A stretch of 64,000 nt of DNA, taken from positions 66,238 to 130,237 of the forward strand of contig JAZDJQ010000012.1 of the NCBI GenBank assembly GCA_043803765.1, read 5' to 3'. The notes beneath the pieces are model-generated. The model made no database searches, was not told the origin of the DNA, and saw nothing but the letters and a program-made list of their open reading frames with translations. This DNA comes from Candidatus Iainarchaeum sp. (GTDB taxonomy: Archaea; Iainarchaeota; Iainarchaeia; Iainarchaeales; VGJJ01). Shown piece by piece: positions 1-29,500 of this stretch; position 1 is the first letter of the stretch, and each line of letters begins with the position of its first letter. Made by a program: the position numbers and the translations under genes.

Positions 1-3000
1 CTCGGCAGTTTTCATTATCGGTTCCTGTGCAGAATAATAAGTCTATTGGAACCGACCCGCAGTCGGATGTATCTACTTTGAATTCTACTTTCTCTTCATC
101 CGATTCCATTTGAAGCACGGCTTCGGGTTCGGGGTCGAATTTGATGCATGATTCGAGGTTGGTTACTTTTATTTTGACGTCGAAGCTCTCGCTAATCACG
201 TTGACTTTTCCCAGTATTCCTACTTCTCCTGCGATAGTAACAGTGAATTGCGCGGTTTCTCCAATGTTTTGCGGGAATGGAGTGAATGTCAACACTCCCT
301 CGTACAGCGTATCATCTGCATGTCGAAACACGTCAAATAGGGTAACATACGTCCCATTTTTCAGTACCTCGATGCTTTGATTGCTTCCTTCAATATCGGT
401 TAGTGCTAATTCCACGTTTCCAATGGGTTCGCTCTTCCATACTATTTTGGCTTTCATTTTTTTGAGTGGAAAGGATTGTCCATCTACTATGCATGTATTG
501 AATGCTTGGAAGGGTGTCTGGGATTTAGAATTGAATGAGGTAGTAACGAGTTCTCCCGATGCCGGTGTTCCGGATAATTGGATTCCTCCTTCATCGCAGT
601 TGGAGATTATTTTGATTCCAATGTTTAGTGGAACGTTTTGTACCCATTCTTGGTTTGTTTTGGATTTGAGAGTGAGTAGGAGGTTTCCTTTCAGGTTTTT
701 GTTGTTGATTACATTCACGGTAGCAGAAGTGGCGGCTTTTACTTGGATTGTTTTGCTTTCGAGGGAGTTAATGCTCGTCGTGTTTTCGTATTGTTTTACA
801 TAGTTTTGCATTTCTCCATTCGATAGGAATCCTTGGAAGTCTCCCGTGATGATGGCCTTTGTTATGAGTAAATTTTCTTGTGTAAGATTGGTAATATCCA
901 ATGGTAAGAATTCGTCCGTGTTGGGGGCATTCGGCAGGTTGAAATTGAGCTGGGTAGGCTCGAATACCACTACGTTTTCATCTACTATAATTTCAACGGG
1001 GTTTGACTCATAACCACCTAAAGTTCCACTTATGACAAAGTGGGTTTTGGGCAGGGATGGCGGCGCGTTGAGCGTTGTTTTTCCTGTTGCATCCGTGTGT
1101 TTCATGGAGATGAACTGCTGGTTCTTATTCGGGTCGATTTTCAACAGGCTAACCACTACATCTTGTAGGTCGAATCCTTCACTATCGGTTGCATGCACCT
1201 CGAATGTGGTGGGGATGAATGCGGCGGCAGTAGTGGGTGTTACGCTCAAGTGTAACATGTCGTGGCTGAATAAGTCCAGTTGTACTTCTTTCTCGAATAT
1301 GATTTCTCCGTTGTTAATGAGCTGTACGATAATCGAGGTAGGCAGTACTTCTTTTGTTAGGAATGAGAATGTTCCTGAAATGGTTTGGTATTGTTTCATT
1401 TCTCCTACGTTAATTCCTTGTCCTTCTCCCCCCGGAATATCATTCGTTGCAAGTCCAAATGCTTGAATGGGTTGTCCGTTTGTTCCTATTACGGTGTATT
1501 TGGAAAAGCTTGCTTCTTCGCTTGGATAGTTTCCATTGCTCGAAAAAAATACTCGCAGTTTGGGATTCTGATACGTGACAGTGGATGCGGATGTGAGAAC
1601 GAATGCGTAGTCGAAATTCTTATTCACGGATACGTTGTAGGGAGGGCCGTCAACTAACAATTCGTCGTCCGTATTCAGGATGGTTTCTCCCGAGTAACAG
1701 AATTTTTCCTCGCATACGACGGGTTTTCCGCTGTAATATATTTTTTGGAATGCTTCGGCATATTGTCCTTCTTTTCCGCTTGAAGAATCGCTTTCTCCTA
1801 GAACATTGTCAACCGGATTGCGCAGCCATTCCCCATCTTCAATGACCCATCCTCGGTAATAGATTAGCAGTGGTTCTAGCGGTCCTGATTTTTCATCCAC
1901 TCGCATTAATACCCCAATCTCATATACTCCGTTCTCGGGGTTATTCCATTCGGCATTAATCCATTTGGCATCCCCATTCGTTAAGTATTCTTGGTCGGCA
2001 TCGTATCCTTCATTGGGCTGGTAACTCGTTCCCTTGATGATGTGCGCGTTGGGAATATTCGTTGCAACGATGCGAATAGAATCGTTCTCGGATAATGTTT
2101 CATCTCCTACCCGCACGTGAATGCCTGCGTAATCGGGCTGTAGTGCGGTGGGTATTTGCAGTTGGAATGTGACGAGATAGGTTTTTCCTGCTTTCATTTC
2201 ATTTGCGCTTGTCCCTGTTATTGGGTCTTTTACATCCACGAATTGGATAGAGGGATAGTCTCCTAGAATTGTTTTGGGCAATTTCACGGTGATGTTTTGG
2301 ATTTTTCCAGAATAGAGTTGATAGGACAGGCTTGCATAGGAGGAATAACCGGTGGCGCTCACTCGCACATAGACCTTTCGATCCGCCTTGAATGCTTTAG
2401 CGGCTACTCCATCCGCTCCTGTTTGAATCACGCATTTTCCTTGAACACATTCATCGCTTCCATCCGTTAGGAATTCTACTAGTGCGAATGGAATGGGCTT
2501 ATTCTCCACGTCTTTTACGTATACTTGTACGGTTCCTAATCCAATCGTGAGTGTTATGCCCGTTTGGGTTGGAACCGCTTTGTCGGTTGTAAAAGTGGGA
2601 GAATCACTCGGACCTGCCGGATACTTCGTTGCGCGTGCGAAGTATGTTCCGGATTTAACTCCAGTAAAGGATGCGGTTCCATTTGAATCGGTTATTCGTG
2701 CATCGTGTGTGTGAAGAATAAATCCCGTTCCGGCATCGTATAATAATACGTGTGCATTATCAACGGGCAGTCCATCTTCATCGAGTACGATTACTTTTAT
2801 TTTTCCTGAATTGAATGAGGTGAGTTTTTCCAATGAAAATGTTATGTCTTGCGTTCCGCTTACGGTTCCAATGTCCTTGCTTTGGGCTAGATAGGAAGAG
2901 TGGGATGCCGTAACCACGTAGGGGATTTTTTCAATGAGATTAAAAGTAATCGTTTTTTCGGTTGAGGTAGTGCTTGCAGTAGCATACACTTTGTTGTCAT

Positions 3001-4063
3001 TCTTTCCTATGAGCTTAATCGTCACGTCCGTCAATGCCGTATTCGTTCCCTTGTCGATCACGCTCACGTTTACAACACCCGTGATTTCTTTTCCGAGTGT
3101 TACTTCGGTTGTTGTTGTCTGATTCGCGCTTACACTTACTTGACTGCTTGTTCCCAATGCGTAGTTTCCATTCGGGTCATTCACGCTCGCATAGTATTCT
3201 CCTACTGGAACGTCATAGAAATGGGCTACTCCAAAAGAGTTGGTGGTCGTACTATTAGTTGTTATTCCTTGGGAGGAGAATAATTCCACTTCCATTCCGG
3301 GAAGGATAATTCCCGTGTCGCTTTTCACTGTGACTTTTATTTTTCCTTTTTCGACGTTGATAGCTTGTAATTGAATGATACTATTTTGTGCAGAGAAAAC
3401 AACTCCTTCTTTTTTCACATACCCATTACTAGTAATGGTTCCCACTAAACTGCCGCAGTCCGCTGGGGGTTTGATGGATAACACTCCGCTCGTCACGATG
3501 TAGGTGGACTGGGGCAAAATGGCACCGCTTGTACAGGATAATTGTACCTGCACTTGTTTTCCTCCTAGATTTAATCCTCCTTCATCGGTGAATTGGAATG
3601 ATAATTCGGATGGCATTGCCTTTAGTAATGCGAGGGTAAAGGAAAGTGTTTCTCCTTTTCCCTCCAGCGTCTTTTCTTCTGTTAATGGTGCATAATCATT
3701 GCTTGTGACGTGAACGGAAATAGTGGTTCCTACTGGTATTTCCTTCAATAATATTTTTCCTACCGAATTGGTTGTTTGTTCCATTGCTACGTTGTTATAC
3801 GCAATATCCACGCTCAATCCTGAAATGGGATTTCCCTGCTCATCCCTAAAACTTAACACAACGTCCGTGCTTCCTCCGCTCAATAATGGCAGTCCAATGA
3901 ACGTAATCAATAGGAAGAAGAGCAACCCCAAAACGATGACAAAACTGGGGATGATTTTATCGAGGGGGTCGATGACCTTGTATACGGGTAACGCAGGGTC
4001 AATCTTGTCCAGTAGTGCATACCATTTGCCTTCTCCTGCGTGATAGATTTCCCTGAGTCCCAT
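1..4063 (-). CDS. Giant surface protein paralogue G0 (partial). Its N-terminus is at 4063 and the gene runs off the window start.
   Basis: Hand translation of the minus strand from ATG at 4063..4061 gives MGLREIYHAGEGKWYALLDKIDPALPVYKVIDPLDKIIPSFVIVLGLLFFLLITFIGL. This is the same N-terminal motif plus TM as the three complete giant genes. No complete minus-strand ORF is listed in 1-4063, consistent with one unterminated frame. Confidence 0.7.
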   Translation of the reverse strand, partial: MGLREIYHAGEGKWYALLDKIDPALPVYKVIDPLDKIIPSFVIVLGLLFFLLITFIGLPLLSGGSTDVVLSFRDEQGNPISGLSVDIAYNNVAMEQTTNSVGKILLKEIPVGTTISVHVTSNDYAPLTEEKTLEGKGETLSFTLALLKAMPSELSFQFTDEGGLNLGGKQVQVQLSCTSGAILPQSTYIVTSGVLSIKPPADCGSLVGTITSNGYVKKEGVVFSAQNSIIQLQAINVEKGKIKVTVKSDTGIILPGMEVELFSSQGITTNSTTTNSFGVAHFYDVPVGEYYASVNDPNGNYALGTSSQVSVSANQTTTTEVTLGKEITGVVNVSVIDKGTNTALTDVTIKLIGKNDNKVYATASTTSTEKTITFNLIEKIPYVVTASHSSYLAQSKDIGTVSGTQDITFSLEKLTSFNSGKIKVIVLDEDGLPVDNAHVLLYDAGTGFILHTHDARITDSNGTASFTGVKSGTYFARATKYPAGPSDSPTFTTDKAVPTQTGITLTIGLGTVQVYVKDVENKPIPFALVEFLTDGSDECVQGKCVIQTGADGVAAKAFKADRKVYVRVSATGYSSYASLSYQLYSGKIQNITVKLPKTILGDYPSIQFVDVKDPITGTSANEMKAGKTYLVTFQLQIPTALQPDYAGIHVRVGDETLSENDSIRIVATNIPNAHIIKGTSYQPNEGYDADQEYLTNGDAKWINAEWNNPENGVYEIGVLMRVDEKSGPLEPLLIYYRGWVIEDGEWLRNPVDNVLGESDSSSGKEGQYAEAFQKIYYSGKPVVCEEKFCYSGETILNTDDELLVDGPPYNVSVNKNFDYAFVLTSASTVTYQNPKLRVFFSSNGNYPSEEASFSKYTVIGTNGQPIQAFGLATNDIPGGEGQGINVGEMKQYQTISGTFSFLTKEVLPTSIIVQLINNGEIIFEKEVQLDLFSHDMLHLSVTPTTAAAFIPTTFEVHATDSEGFDLQDVVVSLLKIDPNKNQQFISMKHTDATGKTTLNAPPSLPKTHFVISGTLGGYESNPVEIIVDENVVVFEPTQLNFNLPNAPNTDEFLPLDITNLTQENLLITKAIITGDFQGFLSNGEMQNYVKQYENTTSINSLESKTIQVKAATSATVNVINNKNLKGNLLLTLKSKTNQEWVQNVPLNIGIKIISNCDEGGIQLSGTPASGELVTTSFNSKSQTPFQAFNTCIVDGQSFPLKKMKAKIVWKSEPIGNVELALTDIEGSNQSIEVLKNGTYVTLFDVFRHADDTLYEGVLTFTPFPQNIGETAQFTVTIAGEVGILGKVNVISESFDVKIKVTNLESCIKFDPEPEAVLQMESDEEKVEFKVDTSDCGSVPIDLLFCTGTDNENCR

Positions 4064-4110
4064 ACCTTTCCTTATCCTACTTAATAATGGAGGAAACGGG
4101 TTTTTGGGCT

Positions 4111-4125
4111 ATTTAAAGGTTGAGC
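4111..4125 (-). promoter_or_regulatory. Putative TATA/BRE promoter of G0 (minus-strand GCTCAACCTTTAAATA).
   Basis: Near-identical to the G1 upstream motif. About 45 nt upstream of the G0 ATG. Confidence 0.45.
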
Positions 4126-4592
4126 TCATCATGGAGTTGGAGGAGAGGAACCCCATATTTTCTAGCAATGGAATTATACTGTTTCACTTCTTCTTCCACT
4201 TCCCTACGATGTCGAAATTTCTTTCCGCCTACTAGAATAACCACTCCTTCTCTTCTGACTCCATACTTTTGTGTGAGTGTATTCATTGATTTTTGCATTC
4301 GCAGAATGTCCATTCGAGGCATCCTAAGGGGGGGTGTGATTTTTTTTCTCTTCGCGAGCTCGCTTCGTATTATTCTCATTTGTTTAAGGAAGTGAACCGC
4401 AAGCCCTTTTTCTTTATTCACTTTGGCGTCGATGGCACGGCTCCGGTAATGGTTGAGCTTGTCTAGTAGTACTGGCAAAGGAAGAGTTGCCCTATGTTCT
4501 TTACTATTGGGATGAGTGCCTTCTCTTCCTGAAGCGTGATGGGAGAATATGCTTTCCCACCCGGGTATGAGTCGGACGCGTCTTCTTGGCAT
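4113..4592 (-). CDS. Hypothetical basic 159-aa protein between giant genes G1 and G0.
   Basis: Uninterrupted minus-strand ORF, tightly spaced (18 bp after the G1 stop, 50 bp before the G0 start). Lys/Arg-rich. No family recognised. Confidence 0.45.
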   Translation of the reverse strand: MPRRRVRLIPGWESIFSHHASGREGTHPNSKEHRATLPLPVLLDKLNHYRSRAIDAKVNKEKGLAVHFLKQMRIIRSELAKRKKITPPLRMPRMDILRMQKSMNTLTQKYGVRREGVVILVGGKKFRHRREVEEEVKQYNSIARKYGVPLLQLHDELNL

Positions 4593-4609
4593 ATGTGATT
4601 ATTTTTCTC

Positions 4610-7600
4610 CTATTTCACGATGCATTGTTGGCCTGCATTTTTTTCTTGTGATTCAATAGCATTCAGTACTTCTTTTGGGTTCCAGAAGAATTCTGTTTTT
4701 GCCCCGCTGTTGCGTACGCATACTGCTCTTTCCGTGATGAGGTTCAATATTTCTTCGATGCTGGTAAGCGTGTCCCCCGGGGTGTTTCCGGGAATAGCAT
4801 TGGTTCCGTTTAGTGGGATTCCTGCTCCGCTTATTCCTTCTCCTATGAATTGCATCTCGCTCTTCCATGCGGTGCGGTTAATACTGGATAGGCTTTCCTG
4901 CGGGGTATAGAATACGCTCTTCAAGAAAACGTTTCCTGTGTGAATCGTATCTCCGCACCATTCGAATCCATAACTAATATTTTCCTGTGGTCCCACTAGT
5001 GCACAATCCGTGTTAATTGCACTGGTATCATACTTTCGATTATATGAATCGAGGAGTGATTTGTCTTCAAAGTCTCGGCAGTTCGCTCCTACACCGTACC
5101 ATGGATTTCCCTGCACCCCGATATAGGATTGCGATGTGTCATTGTTTACTCCTACTGAATAGAATCCGAACACGTCGCTCTGGGCGCTCTTGTTTCCTAT
5201 TTTCATCATGACGGGAGTAGCGAATGAAGGCGACCATTTTATGCTCAATGAGTTCGTGCTGTTTTTTGTTACCGTGAGAATGTTTCCTCTCTCCAAACTA
5301 TTGAGTATTGTGTATGCGTTCACGGTGCTTGATTGTACGCTTGCAACGGGGGTTGAATCCGGAATATCAACGGTTACTACTTGGGAATGGGGCTCGTCAT
5401 TCACGACTATCTTTTCTCCAGAGAAGTTGACTCCGTATCCTACTCTTCCTTGTCCGTCATCCGTTCCAATCAATCCGTTGAATGGCAGGCTGTAGAATGG
5501 ACTATTATCCTCAATTGTGCTTGTCTTCTCTAATAATACGTTCACGATGGCGTCCGGTTCTTGTCCATTAACGAAACTCATTTCAGGTCCATCAAAGTTG
5601 ATATCCAATGTTACGTCGTATATTCCGGGGCCGGGCAATAGGTATCCTTCTACTGTGGGAACGCCTCCTTCTCTTTTCACAACCCAATGGTTTCTATTCT
5701 TGAACAATAATGCAATTCCATTCATGGGGTCAGTATAATACGATGGGGCGTCAAAGAAGCTTACTTTGTTGGCGTACCGGTCAAAGTCAGTAAAGAAGTC
5801 TGGACTGAATCGGTCCTGCATGAGGTGGGCACGGAAACTAACTAATTCGAGTATTTCGTCCTTTCCTATTCCGTTTGGATAATTCACTCCTATTCCCGCT
5901 TCCTCGTTTGCTGCAATAAATTCGCTCAAGCGCAATGTAGTAAAGGGTTGGCAGGCTACAAGGGCGCTGGATGTTCCAATAAAGAACTCCGTAGTAATCG
6001 TGTCGGATGCGGGAACGCTGTTGGAGCAGTTCTCACAATCCTCTGGAATAATGGTGGCCGTTATTTCATAGTGTCCTTCGGGTAAATTGGTGGCAGTGAA
6101 CCCCAAACTAACCTTGCTTCCTCCTATTGGAATCAACACCATCTTGGATTGGGTGATGGGCGCAGTGAGAGCGTCTTTTATCTTATACGAAATGCTTACT
6201 TTCGCATTATTCATTGCGGGCGTCTTGTTTTCTATTCCTACTATCATATTCACATCCGTTGGGGCTGTTTTGTCAACGCTTAATGAGGCGATTCCAATAT
6301 CGGCTGCTGGAATGGGCTGTGTTTTTACTCCTGATAATTGGTCTTCTAATGGGCACTCGAATGGGGCATTGGCTTCAATGAATTCTCGTAATAATTGTAC
6401 TTTCTGGATTAACTCGATAGAGAATTGGGTGGCGTCACAATAGATGTGCGCGCTATTCCCTTCATTATCCACTTGTCCTTGGTCGCACGCGTAGGCATCA
6501 ATGTCATTAAAGTTCCACGCAAACGCAACGCGTGGAGCCGCGTTGATTCCTGTCTTCCCTGTCTTCTCGGAGAACGTATCGCAATCCAGTGCAATGGGCG
6601 GGACTCCTGTTTTGATTAATGTTTCGGGAGTGAATGAATTATACTGCAAGTGGAACCGTGCTTTTGAATCCAATATGTCTTCCTCTTTCAAATCATCCGG
6701 TGATGGAATCTTATTCTTGTATTCAACATCTTGTGCATAAACAAATCGTTCTCCTGTTACAAGCAGGTTGCGGAAAATGGTTTCGTTCACAAACTTGGAA
6801 ATATTGGTAAACGTGAGGTTGAATGCTTCTACTCTTCCTAGTATGGGTTGTTCTAATGCAATCTTTGGAAGAATCGCCACATCGTCTTCTTTCACTTCGA
6901 TATCCTTATCCTTTACTTTCTCATCGCTTCCCTTCTCTCCTCCAATCACTTTGATTTCATCAATGACCAAATCCTTTCCAATAATCGTTACATCAAACTC
7001 CTCATCATCCGACATGAAGTAATGGGTTAGTCCGGCTACAATCGTGGTGACGGCGAATGAAACGAATGGGTTTCCAGTGCCAAGCGAAACCGCTCCCACT
7101 ACCTTGTTGAGTATTCCCCCAACGAGGGACTCGCCAATCTTGGAGCCCAAACTGGATTGTTGAGTAGCTCCCCCGCCAGTGGCATCCAATGACTTAGTTT
7201 CGCCAGTACCCGCAACAAACCCTGTGATGGGGGATGTGGGAATCGACTCGACAGAATATTTCTTAGTAATAGCCTCAACTTTTTCATTGTCAGCAGGGAC
7301 AATAGTTAACATGTACCCCCCATCGAAAACACCTCCTTCAATCGTTGCACCTACAACTGTAATAGTTGATCCTGAATGAGAGAATTTAACGCCATTAATG
7401 GTAAGTTCTTTAGCATATTTATCGGCCGCTGTGGCATTCTTGAATGTTATCGCGTTACCCGCCGTAGATTTCACATCGCCTTCCTCAATCCAAAATTCAG
7501 TTCCTTTACCAGAATTTTTTTCACCAGAATCGGGAGAGAGATCGCTTTTCGGTTCCTCTCCATTCCCTGGGGTTCCCTCTGTCTCCGTAACCTCATCCTT

Positions 7601-10600
7601 CTCTCCGCCAAACGCGTCTTTTCCTTCGAGTAGGTTGCTCACCATGGTGACGACTCCCGCGACGATTCCTGCTTGGAGTCCAACGCAGAGGCTGTCTTTC
7701 CAATCCTTTGGAATTTCGATGACAACGTTTACTCGTTGCTCGGTGCAGTAATTGTCCAATCGTGCGGTATCAAATCCGTCGAAGTCATTTTTCGGGTCAT
7801 CGTACACGTCGAACTCGTAACGATTCAATTGCAGACAGGCATTCGGATCGCGTATGCGGGCGCGGAGTATTTTGTTTTGGGATGGAACCTTGTTCTCGAA
7901 TCCTTCCACGTTAACATAGATGGGGTATTGTCCTTGGTCGAGTTCGTTATCCCCCACTTCGATTGCTTTTTTGTCGTCTCCTTGTAGTTTGAATGTTTTG
8001 GATGCTACTGCTAAGTCTGTTTGGAGTGCGAATTCTACTGGTGCACCGCATCCTTTTGTTTCAATCGTGATGGTGTCTTTCTTTCCGGGTTGTAAATCAA
8101 TTATTTCTTTATCGTAGGTTATACAATCCACTAAGTTCACTACGGTTATTTGAGTGTTTATTTTTCCGCTTAATAGTTGCGGTTTTCCTTCGAGTGGATT
8201 GGTTGCTTGTATTTCCACGTCAAATATTCCTTCTCCTTTTATTCCGCCGTAGGGGGCGAAATCAAGTCGTGCAATTAATATGTCTCCTGCGGGAATAGTG
8301 GGAAGCACGTTGGAATAAAATCCGGAACGGACCTTAGCTGCCCCTATTGGGGTGGGGGATGTTTGTTCGAACACGCTCAGTGTGGTTTCACCCAATTCGT
8401 TTCCTGCCCAATTTGCTTTCGTTTTTAATTCCTTGAGAGGGGCAGGTATTCCTCCGATACTGCAATTGTTCTGTATTTGGAATTCGAATGTGACACTTTG
8501 TCCATCCGTGCTGGTAATCCATGCTCGAGGTGCGATGTTGAGGCACGTGGGGTCGTCTACTTCGCTTGCAACCGAGAGGGAGTATTTGATTGGTAATTCT
8601 AACAAATACTCGTTTCCATAGCTTTCTATTTCAACGTTGAGCGTGGCTTCCACGTCCTCATGTTCAATTAGGTTGAGTGCTTCGGGTGTTAGAACGGACT
8701 TGAGATTAACTTCGAGTGTGCTGTTTTTTTGTATGACGATTCCTTCGTAGGGCAGCAGGTTGGAATTGGTTTTCTCTTTGTCGATGAATCCTTCCAAATT
8801 TCCTAATAGGGAAAGTTGTTTTACTACTACGGGAATGCCCATTTCGTTGGTAATCGTGAATGTTTTAGATTTCTCTGATTCGGTCTTAACGTTGATGTTT
8901 ATTCCGAGTGTTTCGGGTTTGAGTGATACCACTTTGTCTGAAATGGTGATGATTTGTACATGGGGATTGTATTCTTCTTTCTCTACTTTTAGTGTTATTT
9001 TCTTTCCTGGCAGTTGAGCAGGCATTTCTATTTCTGCGTTTCCTGCCGCATCCGTGTATTTTGTTGCCAGAACAACCCCCAGATTGGTTGTGAGCGAAAC
9101 AAGCGCGTGTTCCACTTCATTCTGGGTTGCACTATCCTCTACGTGCAGATTGAGGGTGAAGGGTACGTTGCTTGGATAGTTTTCCGGTTCGATGGTGACG
9201 CTTAATTCTTTGTCCCCGTTCACATTTATTTGGATGTTTTTGCTGAATACCACTTGGTAGTCGGATACCAATTCAATAGTAACAATGGTTGTTCCCACTT
9301 GTTTTGGTTTGAAGTGGATGCTTCCCCCTATTTTTTTCTGCGGGGTGAAGTCTCCCATGGGAATAGGATTTGGGAATTCGTAATCGTTTACCGTTCCACT
9401 TAGTTTGAGTGCGTCCGCGTTGTATATCTCGTACGTTGTAAAGTCGAATCCTTCGCTGGATGATTTGATGCGTAAATTGGAATTGGTATGGAATGCGTTT
9501 CCATTGTTGAGCAGGTTGAACGTGAGCGTATAATTCTGGAATACGGATGCATTGTATTGTTCCGTTACGTCTTCAATGAGTTGTTTGTCTTCATCTAATA
9601 TGGATGCATCGAAGCAGAATTGGGAATCGCATACGGTGGTAACGCCTACTTGGTAACTGGCGGATTTGGTGGCAGCATATAATTCATCTGCGGGGTTGGC
9701 ATCCTTAGGGTCGCGCAGAATTTCACTATTCTCTGCGTGTACTTTGTAGGATAAGAATAGTATGTCTTGGGGTAATGCGGTGGTGCGCACGTGAAGGGTT
9801 GCCTCCAATTCGTACACGCCGGGATTAGGTCCGAAAATGTGGGCATTAATCCATTTTGCGTTACCAAACGTAATGCTTTCCCCGTCAACGTTCACTCCAT
9901 TGGCCGGGTCCCATGAGCTTCCTTTTACTATTCCTGCTTTGGGCATGTTGATCGAGGAAATGTACCATTCGTCTTTCTCTACGATGTCCTTGTCTCCCGT
10001 GCGGATGTGAATGGTCATGTCGTCTAATTCATCTTGTTCTTCTGGAATCTCTACGAGGAATTTGGCGATGTAGTCTTTTCCTTTTCCTACTCCCGTGACT
10101 ATTTTTCCATCCGTTGTAAAGAGTCCTACTAGTTCGATTGAAATATTTCCTTTTGGTTTAGTTGGAAAAAGTATCGCATTGAATGACTGCGTGCTGTTTG
10201 GAAGAATGGGTTTTTGTATGGTAGTAAGAGTAGCATAATTTGTTTTGCTTACCACCAAAAATACGTCTTTATCCGCTTTGCTGTCCTGCCCGTTGCTTGG
10301 CAGGACATAGGTTCCGTTGCTGTCCGTTAGGTCGCTTCCGATGAGTTTGTTTTTGAACGCATTATACACACTCACTTTGGCGAATGGAACGGGCATTCCG
10401 TCTTGGTCCATCACATGAACACTTACAACGCCGTCGGGTATTTCTAATGTAAGTTGATAATCATACGTTTCAGGGTCCGAAATGTCAAAGAAGTGTTCTT
10501 CACTGAACCCGGTGAGGGATGATTTGTAGGCGAATGCTTGATAGTTTCCCGATATGACACTGTTGAATGTTCCTACTCCATTCACGTCCGTTAGCACGGC

Positions 10601-12011: not shown

Positions 12012-12494
12012 TTACACTCCTAATCCGGCAAAAGGGAGCCATTTTTCCATTTGTTCCGCGTTTGGAAGAATTCCAAAGAGGTACCATACGACGATACTGC
12101 ATAATACGATGAATCCGAGATTGAGGAATGCGGCAACCATCAGTCCGGGTAGTCTCGTTTGGGCGTTCGAATAGATATCAACCAGTGTTAAATCGCCGAG
12201 TGTTTTTCCATATATTCCGGCTGCAATCGTGCACACGCCTAACAATAATCCTGCTACTGGAAATGCATGCACCCATCCGCTTTGCCAAAAACCGATTCCC
12301 ATGATTAATAGCGGGGTTAATCGTCCGAAGAATAACCATCCAGAAAAAAATCCTGCGATGATGAATCCGATGATAACCATTAATGCGGGAATGTCAACTG
12401 CTGGAACACTACCAAGCCGTGCGGCCATTACTCCTACAATCCATGCAAATCCCAATACGAGTGCCGTGTTGCTTCCCATGTATACGTGTCTCAA
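12012..12494 (-). CDS. Small polytopic membrane protein (about 4 TM, 160 aa) between G2 and G1.
   Basis: ORF with four hydrophobic helices. Starts 23 nt after the G2 stop. No family recognised. Confidence 0.55.
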   Translation of the reverse strand: MRHVYMGSNTALVLGFAWIVGVMAARLGSVPAVDIPALMVIIGFIIAGFFSGWLFFGRLTPLLIMGIGFWQSGWVHAFPVAGLLLGVCTIAAGIYGKTLGDLTLVDIYSNAQTRLPGLMVAAFLNLGFIVLCSIVVWYLFGILPNAEQMEKWLPFAGLGV

Positions 12495-20042: not shown

Positions 20043-20131
20043 CCCACACAACCTGTTATACCTACCAAAGCCCGTTTTCCCCCTTTTTATATGTTGGGGG
20101 AAAAACGCCTAATAGTGTCCTTTTACTCATT

Positions 20132-21847: not shown

Positions 21848-21895
21848 CCTGCGTTCAACGAGAAGGGCCTTTTTCTATCTTTCTTTTATTGAATG

Positions 21896-24800
21896 CTATT
21901 TTGGACTGCAATCGTCCAACCACGCAGCAGCAGGAACCCGTTGATCAGGAGAAAGAATGTCAATGCTAATCTTCTCGCTCTTCCCTTCTCCTTCTCCCGG
22001 GCTTACAACGAATTTGTATGTGTGTCCTTTCTCGAATACGATGTTATTGCTCACGGGGTCGATGACGTTCACCGACTCCGCTCCGAGGGATATTTTGTTT
22101 TCTATTTCATCGGACAAGTCGCTTCGGTAGGCGGCGTATCCCGCGACGCCTCCAATTCCCCCGCATACTAATCCGCGTAGGAATCCTGTTGTTTTCTTGA
22201 CTGCTTTGGTTTGGATGAATTTTTCGGGAACGGTGATTTTTCCTGCTTTGTCTGCGGCTTCGGTAACCGCTTTTTTGATTGAGTTTTTGGCAACATCAAT
22301 AGGGCCCGTTCGGAGGAGGGTATTTTTTCCGTTTATTATGTTATTTTTCAGACCGTTTAAAGTTTCATCATATTCACTCGTAAGAATTCTGAGACTCGCT
22401 TGTGCTCTCTTCTCGAGTTGTTCGAATTCGGCCACATTAAAATTTGGGTTTGCCGAATATTTGGTCTTGAGATTGGCGAATCCATCCGCTATCTTTTGTT
22501 TTTCTGCATCGAATAATTCAATCTTATTGGCTAACTGTGTCCGAATAGGAGGATCGGGAGGAGCAGGAACTTTTATTTTTCCTACTTTAACCTGTTTAGA
22601 TGTCCATTTGCTTAGATACTCGTCCGCAACCTTCGTGTTGTTAACTATTTTTTTGGCAACGGATTCATCCACTTCCTTAAGAAATGCTAAATGAGCTTGA
22701 TCGATGGCTGCTTTGGGATCCACATACGTGAGTTTTTTGACAGGAATGGGGCTTTTGATCGCTTTGATTAAGTTAGTAGTTTCCGCTGCGAATAAAGAGG
22801 AATTAGCGGGTTCCATTTCCATGCTTTGGTCTAATGGGGATGTGGCAAAATCTCTTGGAACGCCATAAATGGTTTCAGTGGCATCCACAATATTTTCTAG
22901 TACTGGAATGCCGTCTGCTTTTTCCTTGTTCAATTCATAAAATCCTATTCCTGTTCCAACACCACAAGTAATTCCGCAATCAACTGCCGCCGCGGGAAGG
23001 GTTGTTCCTAATGTAAATACGGCTGCCACTCCATGGCATGCAAGGCATGATGCTATGCATGTTCCTCCAAACCATGCCATTGCTGCCTGTTGTTTCCCTT
23101 TGAATTTTTCCTGATATACCGGGTCGTCGCTTGCGAGTATTCCTTGTCCTTGATAGGCGAAGAATGCGTCTCCTGCCTTCTTTCCATTGGCTGCTTCGGT
23201 TACTGCTTGTTTGAGTGTTTTGCTGCTTACCGGGTCGTCCCAGTCGATGGTAGCGTACCATACTCCTGTTCCTTTTTCATACGCTTTAGCAAGAGCGTCA
23301 TCCGCGTCCATCGTGCAGGTGCGCAATTCAAATGTGAGAGGCCCCGCTTTGGTATTATCGAGTAACCGGGTGGCGCTTGTCTGGATGGTCATTTTGTTAG
23401 CAAGGTGTTGTGTTTCCGCGTTGGCGGTGGCGCATAATAGAATGTCTTTTTGGTATACTTGTTCTTTCGTGTCAAAGGGGAGTGCGTAGGGGCTTCCGAT
23501 GGTTAATTGGTCTCCGGGAATAGCACCATCGGTGTTGCTTCCTTTTTTCTCATACAAGTTGAGTGTGAGTAGTCCGGGCATGGGATCATTTCCATTGGGT
23601 TCGAGGGAATAGGTTGCTTCGCTTACTTCGGTTGACCTCGTTGATAGTTCACAGCATGTTGGATTGGGTCGCACGATTAGTCCGCCTTCTTTTGTTCCGG
23701 GTAATGCGCATCCTTCGAATGTGAATTTTCCTACATCCTTTACGGCGGAGATGCGCCATGTTTGTTCATCTTTTGTGATGCACCCGTTCACGTTTTTTCC
23801 TAGGCTTGTAATTATTTTTCCCGCTTCGATTACAGCTGCTTTTGGAATGTCGCTTCCGCTTCCCCTTATTGTGGTAATGATGCGTTTGGTTCCGTCCCCA
23901 TGCGTGGCAGGATCAAGTGTGAGTTCGACTACGCTTTGGGTTAGTTTTCCTATTTGTAGGTCCATTCGGTTGCTTCCCGTGTTTTGAATCGCCCTGTCTT
24001 TTGTTCCAAATACGGTTTCGGCGAGCCATTGAGCGGCCTCTTCTAATGCGATTGGATACTTGACTACTCCTAATAGTGTTTGTTTGTTGTTTAATGCAGT
24101 GAGTGACCTGTCTTTTGGTAGGAAGTTGGCCGCATTATATATTTTGTCTGCGCATTCGGCTGTTTTTTGTCTTGGGGAAATGAGTTTTACTGCCACGTTG
24201 ATTGCATCCGGTTGGAGTTGGTTTCCTACTACTTCCACGCTTCCGATAATAGCAATGCGGTATTTTCCGCATCCTTGTATTTCGGGTAAAAATATTTTAT
24301 TCCCGAGTGTTGTTCCGAGTCGTGCTTCGAATCCTGCGTCCGCGTCATCTCCTCCTAGTGAAGTGAGTGTTTCGGTTTGCATTCCGCTTAATCGGGGGTA
24401 TGTTCCATCTTTCATTACGAATTCGAGCAGATTGGGAGTAATTACGTCGTGTTGCAGGTACAAATCGATGGAGGAGGACTTTATTCCTAATTGTTCGAAT
24501 GTGCAATAGTGTTGGGTCAAATCACAATTTTTGAATAAGGATGCGTCGTTTTTCTTTGATTGTAGTTGCTGGGCGGCTTTGGCAATGTGTTGTTCGATGA
24601 GAGTGGATAGCATGTTGGCTGCTTGTTCCGCATCGCAGTAAGCCTGCGAGCATTCGTTTTTTTGGGCGAGTTGAGGAAATTTGATTTGGGCCATTCCTCC
24701 TTCACAGTAGGGTACTTCGATCGCGTTGGATGATTGAGTGCTTTCTAATTCGTTTTCTCCAAGGGCTATTTCAATATTGATGGGGTTTGATTCTACTGCC

Positions 24801-27800
24801 TTCTGGGACAAAATCATGATTCCTTTTACTCGAATGGGGAAAGTGGCCTTGTAGGGGTTGCTCTTGTTGAGAGTAATATTGAATTCTCTTTCTTCGTCCT
24901 TTTCGAGTGTGTCGGAGAACTCGACTGGAGTTATTCCGAGTGTGTTTCCGGATGCGTTGTCCGGATTTACTTGCGTGATGCGCACGGGTTCCAAACATTT
25001 GTTTGAAACCGTGATGCGCTTGGATAGTGTCCCTTGTATTTGGGAGGAAACAAAGCTTATTGGAGTGTTGAATGCGCTTACTTCCAGGCAGGAAGTAGCC
25101 CCTGTTTGAATGTACACGTCTACTGTTTTGAGTTGGATTCTTTTTCCGTCAACTACTCCAGTCAAAACGAGGCGTTGGGATCCTAATTCTGCTTTATCGG
25201 TAGTACTCTCACCGATGATGGCGAGCGGCGGATAAAGTGTTTGTCCGGGGGACAACGCACTGTCTTGGGAATAGTATCCTGTTTGGTAATATCCTCCTGC
25301 GTAGGTATCATTTCCGCTAGTAGATGTGGAAGAGGAATGATTGTTCTCCAGTTTGAGTGTAACCCCTTCTATTTTGTCTCCTTCGAGTGTTCCGCGTATA
25401 TCATAGATGAGCGATGCTCCGATGTTGGTGATGGGAACGCTGACTCGGTCGGTTGCTTTGGTGTTTCCTGCTTTTACCAAGTTGAGCGTCACGGAAAGCG
25501 GTGTTTGGAGTGATTTTGATTTGTCTTGGAATATAATATCGAGCGGCAGGCTTGCGGTTAGTTGCGGCGCCTTGAACATGAGAGCATAGTTTGCTTGTGC
25601 GGGAACAAATCCTGCGCGGAACAAACGATTCGATAGGGTAAAGTCCACTTGTCTTTCTTGTCCATTTCCTAGTCTCAGTTGCGAGTCGACGGCTGCGATT
25701 TTCAATCCATCTACTTCTAACTGTCCGCCTTGCGTGCTGATTCCGGGAATGAGAATGAGTTCTTCTCCGCAATTGTTTTTTGCCTTTACGCTTACTCGTT
25801 TGTTTTCCGCGTTCTGATAATATCCTTGATCGTCATACCCTAAGTTGTTGTATCCGTTGGATAAGTAATTATACTGGTTGGGAACAGCGTTATTTCCATA
25901 ATAGGAGGGTGTTGGATTGTAGGCTCCTCCCGTACCGTACATGTTTCCATAGGGTTGTGTTTCTCCTGACAATACGACGGATACGCGTTCCTTGTCAAAT
26001 GTTAGACAGGAGGAATCGAGTTGTTTGTTATACGTTGCTTCTAATTGTCCTTCCGTTTCCACGGGGAATGCGTCATTGATTTCTCCTCTTACTTTTAGTT
26101 TTCCCGCTCCTGACAGCACGGAAGTGTCTTCCGCATTCCCGGTATAGTGAGCGATTATTACCAAATCGCCTTTTCCATTGGCTGGAATAACGGGGATGAT
26201 TCCTACTTCAATGAGGATGTCTTTTGGGAATAAGTCATATTCAAGGAATTCTCCCGTAACATTCGTAACAGGTTGATTCGTTTTGTTCGTAAGAACAATG
26301 TTTTGGGTTGCCTGCATTTGCCCATAGGAAATGTGAATCGCGTTTTTCTCATTCATGGATAAGGGAGAATCGATTCCTACGTTGAGCGTGTCCTCAAAGT
26401 CAACAAATCCCGGTACTTTTACTTTTACGTGATAAAATCCGGGGGAAAGGGGTTTGTTGAATAGGTATTTTCCGCTTTCTCCCTTGTTGAGCGTGTTTTT
26501 TCCTTTGATGCTTCCAGCGAACTCTCCTGTTATACTAGTAAGCGTGATAAGTGCATCCGTAATAGGCGTTCCTTCTTCATCCGTGATGGTAAGTAAGAAT
26601 GATTCGTTTGGATTCACGTGGTCGGGCAGTGTAACGCGTAACAATTGTGCTTCTACGATGGGGAAAGGAATCGTTTGACTAAGTTGCGCGTTGTTTGAAA
26701 TGATTTGAAGAGTAATGCTCGCATCTCCCACTTCTTCCGTATAGAAATGAACCCTTGCTTGCGTTCCATTTGTTCCGCTCACCGCGGGAATGTTCACGCT
26801 AATGCTCGTGTCCTTGTTTCCATTGTTTTCTATCTTTCCAAATGTATTCACTTCGGTTTTAGTAAATACTATTAGCGGTTCGTCCGGGTCGGTTTGTGCT
26901 TTAATCACCGTTCCGTTGAGAGCGGGTTGTAGTTCCGTATTGGCAATAAGTCCTTCTTTTGGAATAGTAGAAGTAGAGAGTGATTGGCTTCCTTGTATGA
27001 GAGAGGGAAGCAGTGTTACTTGTAATGCGTAGGGTTTTTGTGCGACTGCTTGAAATGCCCCTGCATCAAATGAGCGGGCGTCCTCGTCGATGAGGGAGAT
27101 GACCGCACAAATTCCATTTTGGCAAAAAGGTTGTGCGTCAAACACGGGAACCCCCGTTGAGAGTGTTTCGGCATACAATCCTGATTTGGTTGAAACGAAT
27201 GAGCTTGTTCCTAATTCGGTATCGTTGGGCGTTCGAAATGTTTGAGTTACGTTGAGCGTAAAGGCACGGTAATGCAGTTCATATAATCCGGCAGGGCTTC
27301 CTTCCCTTGCACGCAGTCGTATATCAAATGTACTTGTTCCGGTAGGATTCATTCGTGTTATTTCAACCCATTTGGCTAGCGTGTTGGGACTAGCGACTGT
27401 TTTCCTGTCTTTTGCCTCATTCCCTGGTTTGGGAAGCGGTGTCCATGTTTTCCCATATGTAATAAATCCCGATTCCCCATTCACGCCGACTATTCCGACA
27501 TATTGCGAGTCCACGTTTCCCATCGTGTCAGGTCCTGTTCGGACAAGTAATCCTCCTTTGTTCATTCCGCTTGGCCATGCGACACTAAATCGGGCGAACA
27601 CGTCTTGTTCGGGGGATATTCCGGGTGCGGCTTCCCCGTTTGGAGTGAACAATCCCATGTAGGTAATCGTAGGTGCGTTTCCGCTTGCCGTCGCAACGTC
27701 ATCGAGTACCCATTCGAGTTGTGTTTTTCCTGCAATGGAAATGGTTTGGGTGAATGTTTTTCCGTCATCGCTCTCCGCGTGCATGTTAATCGTATCGTTG

Positions 27801-29500
27801 GGCGTGGTGCTTACAAATTCTATTATCCCGCTTGTTGTGTGTTCTTCTGCAAATGTGTTTCCGCCCGTGTCTTCGATGGTGATGGTTCCGATGAATGGGT
27901 TTCCATTAAGGTAGTGTGCATTTAGTGTTACTCCATGTAACCCGTCCGATAGCGTGAGGATAACTTTGTTGAGTCCCGGAATGATTTGGATTTGTTGTTC
28001 CGCTGATTCGTCTCCTTTTTCTGCTCGTACGCGGATTGTTTTTCCTGTTTGAATGCGCGATGTAAAACTCCCCGCGGCATCCGTTGGCTTTCCGCTCACA
28101 AGAGGAAGAAACTGTCCATCCACTTCTTCGTCGATTGAAACGCTCGCGGAGGGGGCGGCCGCTCCATTGGATTCGTTTACAAACACGGTTAGAATTCCCG
28201 CACTCCCGCTCGTGAATGGTGTTAAGTTGAGTGTCATGACTGCGGAATCGTCCTCGATTTGTAATTGGGTCCAGTCTACGCTTGCGCGTGTGGGGAAAAA
28301 GTTGGGGTGAAATCCCAGCAAATAATACGTGTTCACTTGATTCAGTCCGCCGAAAATAACTTCTCCTGAAAAGTTGCTTGTTTCATGGTCGATGCGTGCA
28401 TAGGATGCGTCCAGCACGTCTACATCTACTCCGTCTAATGGTTGAGTAGAATTCCCGTTCTGCGTAAGCACGACTAGATTGACTCCTCCATTCTGCAAGG
28501 GAATGAGCATTGTTTCTGTATCATTGCGCAGTGTTTTTCCTCCGGGATATATTGATTCGCTTGAAAAGGTAACGTAGTTTTCTTTCTTTACCGTTACCCG
28601 CACAACGTGACCTTTAGGCAACTGTTCAGCGTGTGTTCCCGTTCCAGTATCAACGTCCGTAATAATCTCATTTGTTTGGGCATTCTCAATTGTAATATGC
28701 ACATCGGACAAAGGAAATTGGGTCTTGGCATCCACTACTTTTATTTCCAATAAGCTGGGGCCGTTTGAAGCGCCGGCTTTGGGTGTCATTTCTTTTGTTT
28801 TAACATCTCCGCTTGTAAATGTAATGAAATCATGCAAATCTTCATAGTTGGTTGCCTTTATTGAGAGTGTAATTTCCTGGTTGAGCGGGACGTTTAACAA
28901 TGCAATTCCATCTCCTCCCGGATACGTTGTGAGTATGCTTCCTCCTCCGACCCATTCTGCTGTAATGGTTGCATCCTTGATTGTGGTTCCTGTTTCTCCA
29001 TCAATGAGCCGCAGTTTTCCCACAATGGCTTCATTGTCTCCTTTCAATAATAGTTTCAGGTTTTCCGTATCGGGATTGAAGTAGGATGTTTTTTCTCCAT
29101 ATCCTTGTTTGGTCGCCGTGATTTTCAATTCACTAGCAGGAAGAATTCCAGATAGGGTAATGGTTTGTCCATCCGATGCGGTCATTTCTTTGAGTAGTTT
29201 TCCATCCCCGTCATAGATGCGCACGGTTACATCACTTAATGAAAGTCCTTTTTCATCTTTCAATGAAAGTGTAAGCGAAACATCTTGTGATGAAATGGCA
29301 GTGGAGGCGAAAAATAGAATACTTAGTAGTAATATCAGCAATCCTGCCGTGAAGGGCATTGCAGGAACTCCTTTGGTTTCAAGAAAGTCATTGTATGCCC
29401 ATGGAAGTCCAATTCCTTTCTCTTCAAAGAAGTCGAGAATCCCATAATAGGCATCCTCTGCCTTCATGTAAAAATTCCCAAGCGTGTCGCTCAATCCCAT
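21896..29500 (-). CDS. Giant surface protein G3 (2534 aa).
   Basis: N-terminus MGLSDTLGNFYMKAEDAYYGILDFFEEKGIGLPWAYNDFLETKGVPAMPF plus TM, a more diverged copy of the motif. Long repetitive ectodomain with Ig-like repeats. A tatatata TATA-like box lies about 35 nt upstream. Confidence 0.9.
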   Translation of the reverse strand: MGLSDTLGNFYMKAEDAYYGILDFFEEKGIGLPWAYNDFLETKGVPAMPFTAGLLILLLSILFFASTAISSQDVSLTLSLKDEKGLSLSDVTVRIYDGDGKLLKEMTASDGQTITLSGILPASELKITATKQGYGEKTSYFNPDTENLKLLLKGDNEAIVGKLRLIDGETGTTIKDATITAEWVGGGSILTTYPGGDGIALLNVPLNQEITLSIKATNYEDLHDFITFTSGDVKTKEMTPKAGASNGPSLLEIKVVDAKTQFPLSDVHITIENAQTNEIITDVDTGTGTHAEQLPKGHVVRVTVKKENYVTFSSESIYPGGKTLRNDTETMLIPLQNGGVNLVVLTQNGNSTQPLDGVDVDVLDASYARIDHETSNFSGEVIFGGLNQVNTYYLLGFHPNFFPTRASVDWTQLQIEDDSAVMTLNLTPFTSGSAGILTVFVNESNGAAAPSASVSIDEEVDGQFLPLVSGKPTDAAGSFTSRIQTGKTIRVRAEKGDESAEQQIQIIPGLNKVILTLSDGLHGVTLNAHYLNGNPFIGTITIEDTGGNTFAEEHTTSGIIEFVSTTPNDTINMHAESDDGKTFTQTISIAGKTQLEWVLDDVATASGNAPTITYMGLFTPNGEAAPGISPEQDVFARFSVAWPSGMNKGGLLVRTGPDTMGNVDSQYVGIVGVNGESGFITYGKTWTPLPKPGNEAKDRKTVASPNTLAKWVEITRMNPTGTSTFDIRLRAREGSPAGLYELHYRAFTLNVTQTFRTPNDTELGTSSFVSTKSGLYAETLSTGVPVFDAQPFCQNGICAVISLIDEDARSFDAGAFQAVAQKPYALQVTLLPSLIQGSQSLSTSTIPKEGLIANTELQPALNGTVIKAQTDPDEPLIVFTKTEVNTFGKIENNGNKDTSISVNIPAVSGTNGTQARVHFYTEEVGDASITLQIISNNAQLSQTIPFPIVEAQLLRVTLPDHVNPNESFLLTITDEEGTPITDALITLTSITGEFAGSIKGKNTLNKGESGKYLFNKPLSPGFYHVKVKVPGFVDFEDTLNVGIDSPLSMNEKNAIHISYGQMQATQNIVLTNKTNQPVTNVTGEFLEYDLFPKDILIEVGIIPVIPANGKGDLVIIAHYTGNAEDTSVLSGAGKLKVRGEINDAFPVETEGQLEATYNKQLDSSCLTFDKERVSVVLSGETQPYGNMYGTGGAYNPTPSYYGNNAVPNQYNYLSNGYNNLGYDDQGYYQNAENKRVSVKAKNNCGEELILIPGISTQGGQLEVDGLKIAAVDSQLRLGNGQERQVDFTLSNRLFRAGFVPAQANYALMFKAPQLTASLPLDIIFQDKSKSLQTPLSVTLNLVKAGNTKATDRVSVPITNIGASLIYDIRGTLEGDKIEGVTLKLENNHSSSTSTSGNDTYAGGYYQTGYYSQDSALSPGQTLYPPLAIIGESTTDKAELGSQRLVLTGVVDGKRIQLKTVDVYIQTGATSCLEVSAFNTPISFVSSQIQGTLSKRITVSNKCLEPVRITQVNPDNASGNTLGITPVEFSDTLEKDEEREFNITLNKSNPYKATFPIRVKGIMILSQKAVESNPINIEIALGENELESTQSSNAIEVPYCEGGMAQIKFPQLAQKNECSQAYCDAEQAANMLSTLIEQHIAKAAQQLQSKKNDASLFKNCDLTQHYCTFEQLGIKSSSIDLYLQHDVITPNLLEFVMKDGTYPRLSGMQTETLTSLGGDDADAGFEARLGTTLGNKIFLPEIQGCGKYRIAIIGSVEVVGNQLQPDAINVAVKLISPRQKTAECADKIYNAANFLPKDRSLTALNNKQTLLGVVKYPIALEEAAQWLAETVFGTKDRAIQNTGSNRMDLQIGKLTQSVVELTLDPATHGDGTKRIITTIRGSGSDIPKAAVIEAGKIITSLGKNVNGCITKDEQTWRISAVKDVGKFTFEGCALPGTKEGGLIVRPNPTCCELSTRSTEVSEATYSLEPNGNDPMPGLLTLNLYEKKGSNTDGAIPGDQLTIGSPYALPFDTKEQVYQKDILLCATANAETQHLANKMTIQTSATRLLDNTKAGPLTFELRTCTMDADDALAKAYEKGTGVWYATIDWDDPVSSKTLKQAVTEAANGKKAGDAFFAYQGQGILASDDPVYQEKFKGKQQAAMAWFGGTCIASCLACHGVAAVFTLGTTLPAAAVDCGITCGVGTGIGFYELNKEKADGIPVLENIVDATETIYGVPRDFATSPLDQSMEMEPANSSLFAAETTNLIKAIKSPIPVKKLTYVDPKAAIDQAHLAFLKEVDESVAKKIVNNTKVADEYLSKWTSKQVKVGKIKVPAPPDPPIRTQLANKIELFDAEKQKIADGFANLKTKYSANPNFNVAEFEQLEKRAQASLRILTSEYDETLNGLKNNIINGKNTLLRTGPIDVAKNSIKKAVTEAADKAGKITVPEKFIQTKAVKKTTGFLRGLVCGGIGGVAGYAAYRSDLSDEIENKISLGAESVNVIDPVSNNIVFEKGHTYKFVVSPGEGEGKSEKISIDILSPDQRVPAAAWLDDCSPK

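Follow-up and report, generated by a model that had tools for sequence, protein, structure and literature searches.

Why should four giant and strongly diverged proteins, encoded side by side in one archaeal genome, all begin with versions of the same short N-terminal module? The question is raised by the window analyzed here, a 64,000-nucleotide (nt) stretch of contig JAZDJQ010000012.1 (positions 66,238 to 130,237) from Candidatus Iainarchaeum sp. Iainarchaeota are uncultured DPANN archaea, the group to which an earlier interpretation made from the DNA letters alone (hereafter the sequence-only reading) had correctly pointed; the window is itself archaeal, with GatD and class III signal peptides, and its proteins are filed at NCBI under Candidatus Diapherotrites archaeon. 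Our analysis shows that the module defines a large, previously unnamed family. The four genes, joined by those for an archaeosortase-like enzyme and a pilin-like protein, probably encode a core apparatus of the cell surface rather than a group of fast-changing adhesins.

The sequence-only reading described four consecutive giant genes on the minus strand. All four open reading frames (ORFs) are present, and only the upper coordinate of G2 had to be moved by one base, from 20042 to 20041:

2 to 4063, minus strand: G0, G0-type giant protein; partial, 1354 residues seen before it runs off the window start (from ORF and translation)
4610 to 11953, minus strand: G1, G1-type giant protein; 2447 residues
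12518 to 20041, minus strand: G2, G2-type giant protein; 2507 residues counted from ATG
21896 to 29500, minus strand: G3, G3-type giant protein and first gene of the array; 2534 residues

The longest ORF of G2 uses a TTG start at 20068, and G1 is identical to an NCBI entry named 'carboxypeptidase-like regulatory domain-containing protein' from Candidatus Diapherotrites archaeon. Gaps between neighboring genes of the array, all on the same strand, are short (17–90 nt), which suggests an operon. At the protein level, G0, G1 and G2 are collinear and 26–28% identical over about 1,300 residues, with G3 more distant. An artifact in which copies of one gene had been collapsed during assembly is ruled out by the low identity of the proteins (22–28%) and by the absence of long DNA repeats among the giant genes, whose only repeats are short stretches over the N-terminal motif.

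What these proteins share most clearly lies at their N-termini, where a module of 41–48 residues is followed directly by an uncharged transmembrane (TM) stretch:

3941 to 4063, minus strand: G0 N-terminal module, residues 1–41, then TM stretch at 3866 to 3940; profile match 4.4e-19
11822 to 11953, minus strand: G1 N-terminal module, residues 1–44, then TM stretch at 11756 to 11821
19913 to 20041, minus strand: G2 N-terminal module, residues 1–43, then TM stretch at 19859 to 19912
29357 to 29500, minus strand: G3 N-terminal module in a variant form, residues 1–48, then TM stretch at 29288 to 29356

The modules of G0, G1 and G2 are 56–63% identical to each other, versus 22–28% in the ectodomain. 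G3 starts with a divergent form (MGLSDTLGNFYMKAEDAYYGILDFFEEKGIGLPWAYNDFLETKGVPAMPF; ..EDAYYGILDFFEEKGIGLPWAYNDFLETKGVPAMPF..) that is 30–35% identical to the other three and is nevertheless matched by the family profile at 3.5e-22. The proposal that all four proteins begin with the same module thus holds as stated for G0, G1 and G2, and for G3 in the sense of a recognizable variant. The consensus reads Y-x3-E-D-K-Y-Y-x2-L-D-x-L-D-x-K-G-I-P-V-Y-x3-D-x2-E-x2-(G/N)-I-P-S-F-P. In an alignment of 155 sequences, Y10, E14, D15, K16, Y17, Y18, L21, D22, L24, D25 and G28 are near-invariant, as are P30, V31, Y32, D36, E/D39, I43, P44, S45, F46 and P47; the stretch beyond the TM helix is poorly conserved. 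Isolated N-termini match no Pfam or NCBIfam model even at an expectation value (E) of ≤10, in agreement with the sequence-only reading, which had recognized no named domain here.

How far does the module extend beyond this locus? When 1.84 billion representative proteins were screened with a profile built from eight N-termini, 1074 cluster representatives reached E≤1e-3 and 618 reached E≤1e-10, a degree of conservation well above chance. Nearly all of the best 150 of the 1074 carry the matching segment at or close to the N-terminus, and members longer than 1,500 residues have a median length of 2,556 residues. These counts rest on an exhaustive search; a word-seeded search with the short N-terminal profile yields only 4 fragments. 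Scanning one genome per species gave 77 loci, nearly all labelled Candidatus Iainarchaeum or Diapherotrites; the complete genomes CP064981.1 and CP010424.1 (AR10) are among them. A few other loci carry the label Micrarchaeota, and a single contig the label Chloroflexi. The motif is clearly kept outside the window, as the profile matches and the 77 genome loci attest. Literature searches on giant proteins of Iainarchaeota or Diapherotrites and on archaeosortase links did not turn up any account of this family.

Two further observations concern the distribution of the family. The contig labelled as a Chloroflexi bacterium (JAFCCG010000021.1, locus L061; L numbers denote individual loci) carries an Iainarchaeota-type locus all the same, and its label is probably a binning error. 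A second conserved context was also seen, in which a helicase-like gene lies upstream of the gene for a module-bearing protein of about 1,700 residues. Next in order come a protein of about 560 residues, which has a signal peptide and ends in [IL]-P-[LM]-I-F, a TM segment and a Lys-rich tail, and then a Cys-rich protein of about 900 residues. This arrangement occurs in L023, L037, L041, L047, L048, L052, L054 (9962–19488), L061, L064, L065 and L070.

The hydrophobic segment behind the module is informative about the way these proteins may sit in the membrane. Each giant protein has one strong N-terminal hydrophobic segment (Kyte–Doolittle 2.3–2.8 over 19 residues), in line with the single hydrophobic helix noted from the letters. 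AlphaFold2, given a 68-sequence alignment, predicted for the N-terminus of G1 a helix at residues 2–25, another at 30–38 and a TM helix at 43–61, with a predicted local distance difference test (pLDDT) score of 89; two helices and then a TM helix is the picture that results. Among family members the uncharged stretch measures 20–41 residues (mean 29), and because of this length the sequences favor a membrane anchor over a typical signal-peptide core. The hydrophobic core (h-region) of a Sec signal peptide spans about 7–15 residues, with a small-x-small cleavage site behind it. On average, the 15 residues ahead of the TM segment contain 2.0 Lys or Arg, versus about 0.7 in the 15 residues after it (the latter value derived from the mean difference of 1.3), and the flanks behind the segment are mostly acidic or neutral. 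Owing to this charge bias and to the conserved cysteines of the C-terminal ectodomain described below, an N-in/C-out, type II topology is supported as a prediction. The N-in anchor preceded by the module, as first suggested from the letters, would fit the charge bias, the invariant C-terminal cysteines and the long uncharged stretch alike.

The order in which the giant genes occur, and the small genes that accompany them, provide the second line of evidence. Four smaller genes of the window belong to this comparison:

29564 to 30097, minus strand: s4, archaeosortase/exosortase-family protein of 177 residues, 63 nt upstream of G3
20132 to 21847, minus strand: s3, pilin-like protein of 571 residues between G3 and G2; class III type signal ..NERA↓FTLFTALLSFILILL (the arrow marks the predicted cleavage position) and a Cys-rich C-terminal part
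12012 to 12494, minus strand: s2, about 155–160 residues, between G2 and G1; four hydrophobic segments (4-TM)
4113 to 4592, minus strand: s1, basic 159-residue ORF between G1 and G0; not a conserved cluster member

In the fetched loci, of which 20 kb each were seen, giant genes were typed by their best match to G0–G3 and small genes were clustered. Two or three giant genes stand in a row within those 20 kb, and the recurring order is archaeosortase-family gene, G3-type, s3, G2-type, s2, G1-type and G0-type, with the array stopping after the G0-type gene. The succession s3-G2-s2-G1-G0 with G3 before s3 is found in L003, L007, L017, L018, L022, L024, L025, L029, L035, L062 and others. Full-length G0-type orthologues have 2255–2455 residues, and the array ends with them in L012, L019, L021 and L059. 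G3-type orthologues include P0005, P0035, P0073, P0095 and P0143 as well as those in L078–L081. A frequent member of the cluster, s2 has 21 homologues in other loci, in unchanged position wherever both flanking genes were seen; s2 itself matches neither Pfam nor NCBIfam. For s3 there are 24 homologues in the fetched loci; those with a complete N-terminus read (K/R)(G/A)↓F-(T/N)-L-F-(T/S)-A-L. Accordingly, s3 has the signature of a class III, pilin-like protein (NERA↓FTLFTALLSF here and NSKG↓FTLFTAL in homologues), and PF04021 does not match it. For s1, no homologue was found in 88 fetched loci and there is no Pfam match. Its slot is empty or occupied by unrelated ORFs in other genomes and therefore represents a variable insertion point inside a conserved operon.

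Sequence comparison across these loci shows how old the four types are likely to be. Over the best local alignment, which spans some 60% of G1, orthologues found by sequence search show 53–71% identity to it. The module of G1 is 70–89% identical to that of its orthologues and 60–63% to those of G0 and G2. In the ectodomain, compared over the N-terminal ~1,300 and C-terminal ~800 residues outside the length-variable linker, identity is 55–72% to orthologues versus 22–28% to paralogues. Orthologues are thus closer than paralogues in every region compared, so that recent duplication or turnover can be excluded. This pattern fits four old, non-redundant paralogue types, as far as sequences can tell, and the comparisons argue for purifying selection on both the module and the ectodomain of G1. 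Gene conversion keeping the 5' ends alike was considered and rejected: the modules are nearer to those of orthologues (70–89%) than to those of paralogues (30–63%). The sequence-only reading had stressed that the ectodomains have diverged far more than the N-termini. This is correct between paralogues and does not extend to fast divergence at present, given the conservation among G1 orthologues.

Which kind of protein follows the anchor? Pfam domains recognized in the first ~1,000 residues are CarboxypepD_reg, Big_1, SpaA, SdrD_B, bMG3 and MG4, all beta-sandwich types; G0 has CarboxypepD_reg, SpaA and Big_1. CarboxypepD_reg (PF13620) is present in all four proteins (65.9–113.2 bits versus a cutoff of 32.3), in line with the carboxypeptidase-regulatory-like beta domains suspected from the letters. 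Such a match names a domain and not a function. For bMG3, only G1 exceeds the Pfam cutoff (37.4 versus 34.9 bits); the bMG3 matches in G0, G2 and G3 and every MG4 match fall below it. We also considered an alpha-2-macroglobulin or complement-like thioester protein and rejected the idea: CTEQ occurs once in G1 and in 0 of 20 relatives, and CxEQ is not conserved. Foldseek matches to C3 and cobra venom factor span single beta-sandwich domains only. A search of the PDB with the sequences of G1 and G3 gave no match. The reported richness in N-x-S/T sequons did not survive comparison with composition-matched shuffles, as the four giant proteins contain 11, 25, 19 and 20 sequons versus 13.7, 22.5, 23.1 and 22.9 expected.

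At the other end of the proteins a further conserved element was found:

4613 to 4765, minus strand: conserved C-terminal module of G1 (..AVCVRNSGAKTEFFWNPKEVL....QCIVK), seen in comparison of the C-termini of 71 complete members

The end module, ..VCV..SG.K.EFWWNP....C.., is common to G0, G1 and G2 types, and a loose form of it occurs in 32 of the 71 complete members. The C-terminal 855 residues contain seven invariant and two nearly invariant cysteines. None of the 71 has a C-terminal TM or hydrophobic segment, the highest 17-residue hydropathy staying below 1.4. Between the two conserved parts of G1 lies an acidic linker that varies from about 70 to 470 residues among orthologues.

Several details of the giant proteins were noted in passing. 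At residues ~1421–1640 of G1 (window ~7030–7693, minus strand), two semi-hydrophobic, Gly-rich segments (SLCVGLQAGIVAGVVTMVS) flank the acidic low-complexity linker; G1 orthologues carry a stretch NP..FGVTT..IDYF where G1 has SLCVGLQAGIVAGVVTMVS, and G3 has similar segments at residues 2140–2190 and 2441–2460. We examined these internal hydrophobic segments as possible additional TM helices and discarded the idea, as their hydropathy is marginal and only 13 of the 57 long members exceed the threshold. The C-terminal tail of G2 is rich in Pro and Ala (..STAPPAAPPVASPATPPAAPPSSSP; window 12521–12600, minus strand) and encoded by about five copies of a 12-nt repeat (12533–12591). Similar Pro-rich tails are present on some G2-type and s3 proteins elsewhere (L018, L007).

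The gene at the head of the array, s4, deserves separate attention. It matches PF09721 at 2.8e-6 (27.4 bits versus a cutoff of 25.7) and TIGR04178 with 39.8 bits (cutoff 23), and stays under the cutoff of every named subfamily, namely ArtA, ArtB, ArtD, XrtF/G/M/X and pacearchaeosortase. Twelve homologues all retain its Cys, N..R and H..LFR motifs unchanged. Linkage to the giant genes was tested by scanning metagenome contigs with the G3-type N-terminus alone, which gave 10 loci. An s4 homologue lies upstream on the same strand in 8 of them, that is, in 8 of the 9 informative ones: one locus ends in pilin-like genes before the expected s4 position, and the one true exception has glycolytic genes upstream of its G3-type gene. 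In L078, which was found through its s4 homologue, a G3-type gene lies about 1 kb downstream, and L015 and L067 also have an s4 homologue upstream of a giant gene. Divergent from s4 in the window is a gene for a polytopic membrane protein of 337 residues (30129–31142, plus strand) without Pfam or NCBIfam match; the pairing recurs in L078, L080 and L081.

The known partners of such enzymes carry a C-terminal sorting signal, and no exosortase or archaeosortase signal was found at the C-terminus of any of the 71 complete family members. At the N-terminus the tripartite signal is incomplete: the motif [IV]-P-[SA]-[FL]-[PA] and a TM helix are present, but the 15 residues after the helix hold only about 0.7 Lys or Arg. 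A protein with a more usual layout is encoded at 49777–54738 (minus strand). Its 1653 residues comprise a signal peptide, a TIG domain and choice-of-anchor Z repeats (NF058597, 5.7e-24), and its hydrophobic tail, LPIPESTSLFFIAALNPLILLFQFFLRLIGF, looks like a C-terminal sorting signal, with no match to a known CTERM model. By its sequence, this protein is a more canonical candidate substrate of s4 than the giant proteins.

On the other side of s4 the window encodes components of a type IV pilus-like system:

34136 to 38038, plus strand: FlaI/PilB-type secretion ATPase with intein; T2SSE, Intein_splicing and LAGLIDADG_3 domains, FlaI and TadA family matches
40489 to 42903, plus strand: polytopic membrane protein of 804 residues; homologues beside the ATPase and s4 in L086 and L087
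42904 to 43434 and 43611 to 44132, plus strand: two small pilin-like proteins with N-termini such as KGQAFEAYRVLIAMV and RGQAFSTFQLLIAAV

The intein of the ATPase, which includes the LAGLIDADG domain, occupies about residues 509–1026; intein-free orthologues of 767–770 residues adjoin s4 in L083, L086, L087 and L088. The 804-residue protein matches neither Pfam nor NCBIfam. A real pilin in the window matches PF04021, and in L083–L085 s4 and the giant gene are separated by large pilin-like genes. Type IV pilus-like machinery is usually close to the giant array; its ATPase, platform protein and pilin-like genes are conserved, loosely linked neighbors, with orthologues directly beside the archaeosortase-family gene in L083 and L086–L088. 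Within this region, positions 38001–40000 reach a guanine-plus-cytosine (GC) content of 0.495, versus about 0.42–0.45 elsewhere. The rise covers a gene for a secreted protein of 599 residues (38102–39901, minus strand) with a Gly/Ser/Asp/Thr-rich end and no family match.

What, then, might the module be for? The explanation that we place first, and to which we give about an even chance, is that the four proteins use it in common as signal-anchor and cytoplasmic docking handle and together form a surface structure of four subunits in Iainarchaeota. Each giant protein would be made as a type II (N-in, C-out) membrane protein of three parts: the acidic, aromatic-rich two-helix module of 41–48 residues, an uncharged TM helix of 20–30 residues, and more than 2,300 residues outside the cell. 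The external part would consist of a beta-sandwich array, the length-variable acidic linker and the Cys-rich C-terminal region with its conserved end module. The module would allow the four paralogues to use one common partner for insertion, retention or co-assembly, and the giant proteins would build one multi-subunit surface structure with s3, s2, the archaeosortase-family enzyme and the pilus-like ATPase and platform. Such a structure may serve to contact the surroundings or a host. Several points weigh against this explanation. The net acidic charge of the module is unusual for a stretch that flanks a TM helix on the cytoplasmic side, and small residues such as GG, common after the hydrophobic segment, are compatible with cleavage. 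The AlphaFold2 model of the C-terminal 855 residues of G1 is of low confidence (pLDDT 61), and Foldseek finds only generic single beta-sandwich domains with it.

The small residues lead directly to a different reading, in which module and hydrophobic segment form a long Sec signal peptide with a conserved extension of its n-region, comparable to the ESPR, YSIRK or KxYKxGKxW motifs of giant bacterial adhesins, that paces or routes export before signal peptidase releases the giant proteins. The module stands almost without exception at the extreme N-terminus of very large exported proteins; G, S and A are common past the hydrophobic segment, the first beta-sandwich domain begins within about 5–10 residues, and the 71 complete members have no other membrane anchor. 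Nonetheless, we consider such a cleaved leader unlikely: the uncharged stretch exceeds usual h-regions, a conserved A-x-A-like site is lacking, and some 45 residues with two predicted helices are far more than known n-region motifs contain, with no match to PF13018 or any other signal-motif model. Release would also leave nothing to hold the proteins on a cell that seems to have a separate surface-layer (S-layer) protein. The latter point bears equally on the suggestion of the sequence-only reading that these are adhesins or S-layer-like proteins whose ectodomains diversify under selection, with only the handle kept. The difference between handle and remainder among paralogues and the variable linker of G1 orthologues are what such diversification would leave behind. 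The conservation of G1 orthologues outside the linker and the fixed gene order argue against rapidly varying adhesins: four orthologous types keep their order across the phylum, orthologues are the closer relatives in every region, and sequons are not enriched. The S-layer part of the idea is further weakened because a different protein, of 1039 residues, has been predicted to be the Iainarchaeota S-layer protein (preprint 10.1101/2024.05.28.596244). We therefore regard this suggestion as very unlikely.

The remaining alternatives turn on the neighboring genes. Conceivably, s4 itself processes the N-terminal anchor as a non-canonical sorting signal, cutting close to where the TM helix ends on the outside, so that the ectodomain is set free or re-attached, much as LapG frees LapA from its N-terminal retention module. 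The position of s4 directly upstream of the first giant gene is suggestive, its catalytic Cys, Arg and His are kept, and the enzyme lies outside every named subfamily. No cluster protein has a C-terminal signal, and the sole shared element of motif plus TM helix is N-terminal, with an invariant Pro at the start of the helix. Judged by charge distribution, however, the motif is predicted to be cytoplasmic and the Cys of the enzyme outside; there is no basic cluster behind the TM helix, the stretch following it is poorly conserved, and the 1653-residue protein offers a canonical-looking candidate substrate in the same window. To our knowledge, all known exosortase and archaeosortase signals (the Haft families) are C-terminal. 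Processing by s4 is thus quite improbable. The same low probability applies to its bolder extension, in which the exosortase/archaeosortase superfamily would gain, in module and TM helix, its first N-terminal sorting signal and the ectodomains would assemble with s3 and the pilus-like machinery into a host-contact organelle. The pilus-like genes also invite the thought that the module is a prepilin-like leader, cut by a prepilin peptidase at (K/R)-G↓I-P, and that the giant protein enters a pilus-like fiber as a pilin-like subunit. Giant proteins and prepilins would share the topology of leader inside, hydrophobic helix and globular part outside. In addition, many members have K/R-G right before I-P-S-F (column 42 is G in 66% of sequences), a true pilin-like s3 is part of the cluster, large pilin-like genes separate s4 from the giant gene in three loci, and ATPase and platform genes are conserved neighbors. 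The site is confined to G3-like subtypes, though, and G0, G1 and G2 types have D-K-I/R-I-P or Q-N-I-P instead. A net acidic leader of 41–48 residues is unlike class III leaders, PF04021 does not match the giant N-termini, their helix is without the F-T-L-F or Q-x-x-x-E-Y features of pilins from the same genomes, and no prepilin peptidase gene was seen in the window. Taken together, this makes a prepilin-like leader highly improbable.

Two complete genomes with the family measure 1.05 and 1.24 Mb, so four genes of about 7.5 kb each amount to roughly 3% of such a genome. This investment, and an order that is kept in most sampled loci, make it very likely that the genes build something central to the cell surface. 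The N-terminal module could join domain libraries and be used to find such proteins, and the conserved set of archaeosortase-family enzyme, four giant proteins, pilin-like protein and 4-TM protein can be studied as a unit, including an archaeosortase-family enzyme whose own cluster offers no canonical substrate. If the module is a docking or sorting signal, it would represent a new route for placing very large proteins on the archaeal surface and would help to show how these small archaea make contact with their surroundings or hosts.

Known systems resemble this locus in different respects. In bitopic assembly proteins such as PilN, which binds PilM, a short conserved N-terminus lies in the cytoplasm ahead of a single TM helix and an external domain, and the gene belongs to a pilus-type neighborhood; there is no homology, and the external part is about 2,400 residues here. 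Type IV prepilins and archaeal proteins with class III signal peptides, among them modular pilins whose C-terminal modules are large, are similar in having an N-in leader, a hydrophobic helix and an external domain, and the giant genes are linked to pilus-like machinery and true pilin-like genes. The giant proteins differ in their long, acidic, structured leader; three of their four types have no cleavage motif, and PF04021 does not match. The PGF-CTERM/ArtA and PEP-CTERM/EpsH systems likewise combine a short, Pro-containing motif before a TM helix in several proteins with an adjacent archaeosortase-family gene. In the present case the motif is N-terminal and predicted to be cytoplasmic, no basic tail follows the helix, and the enzyme belongs to no named subfamily.

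A giant adhesin held by a conserved N-terminal element, with a dedicated Cys-dependent enzyme encoded alongside, is also familiar from LapA-type RTX adhesins and LapG. LapA sits in an outer-membrane pore belonging to a type I secretion system, and LapG acts as a soluble protease of the periplasm, whereas here a TM-helix anchor and a polytopic archaeosortase-family protein would take these places. Finally, ESPR (PF13018), YSIRK-G/S and KxYKxGKxW are motifs of giant bacterial surface proteins, about 20–25 residues long and basic, while the module described here spans about 45 residues with two predicted helices, is acidic and aromatic, occurs in archaea and precedes a hydrophobic segment of anchor length; the models of these motifs match none of the isolated N-termini at E≤10. 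What these motifs have in common with the module is the general design, a lineage-specific N-terminal motif placed ahead of an export segment on very large, repeat-rich surface proteins.

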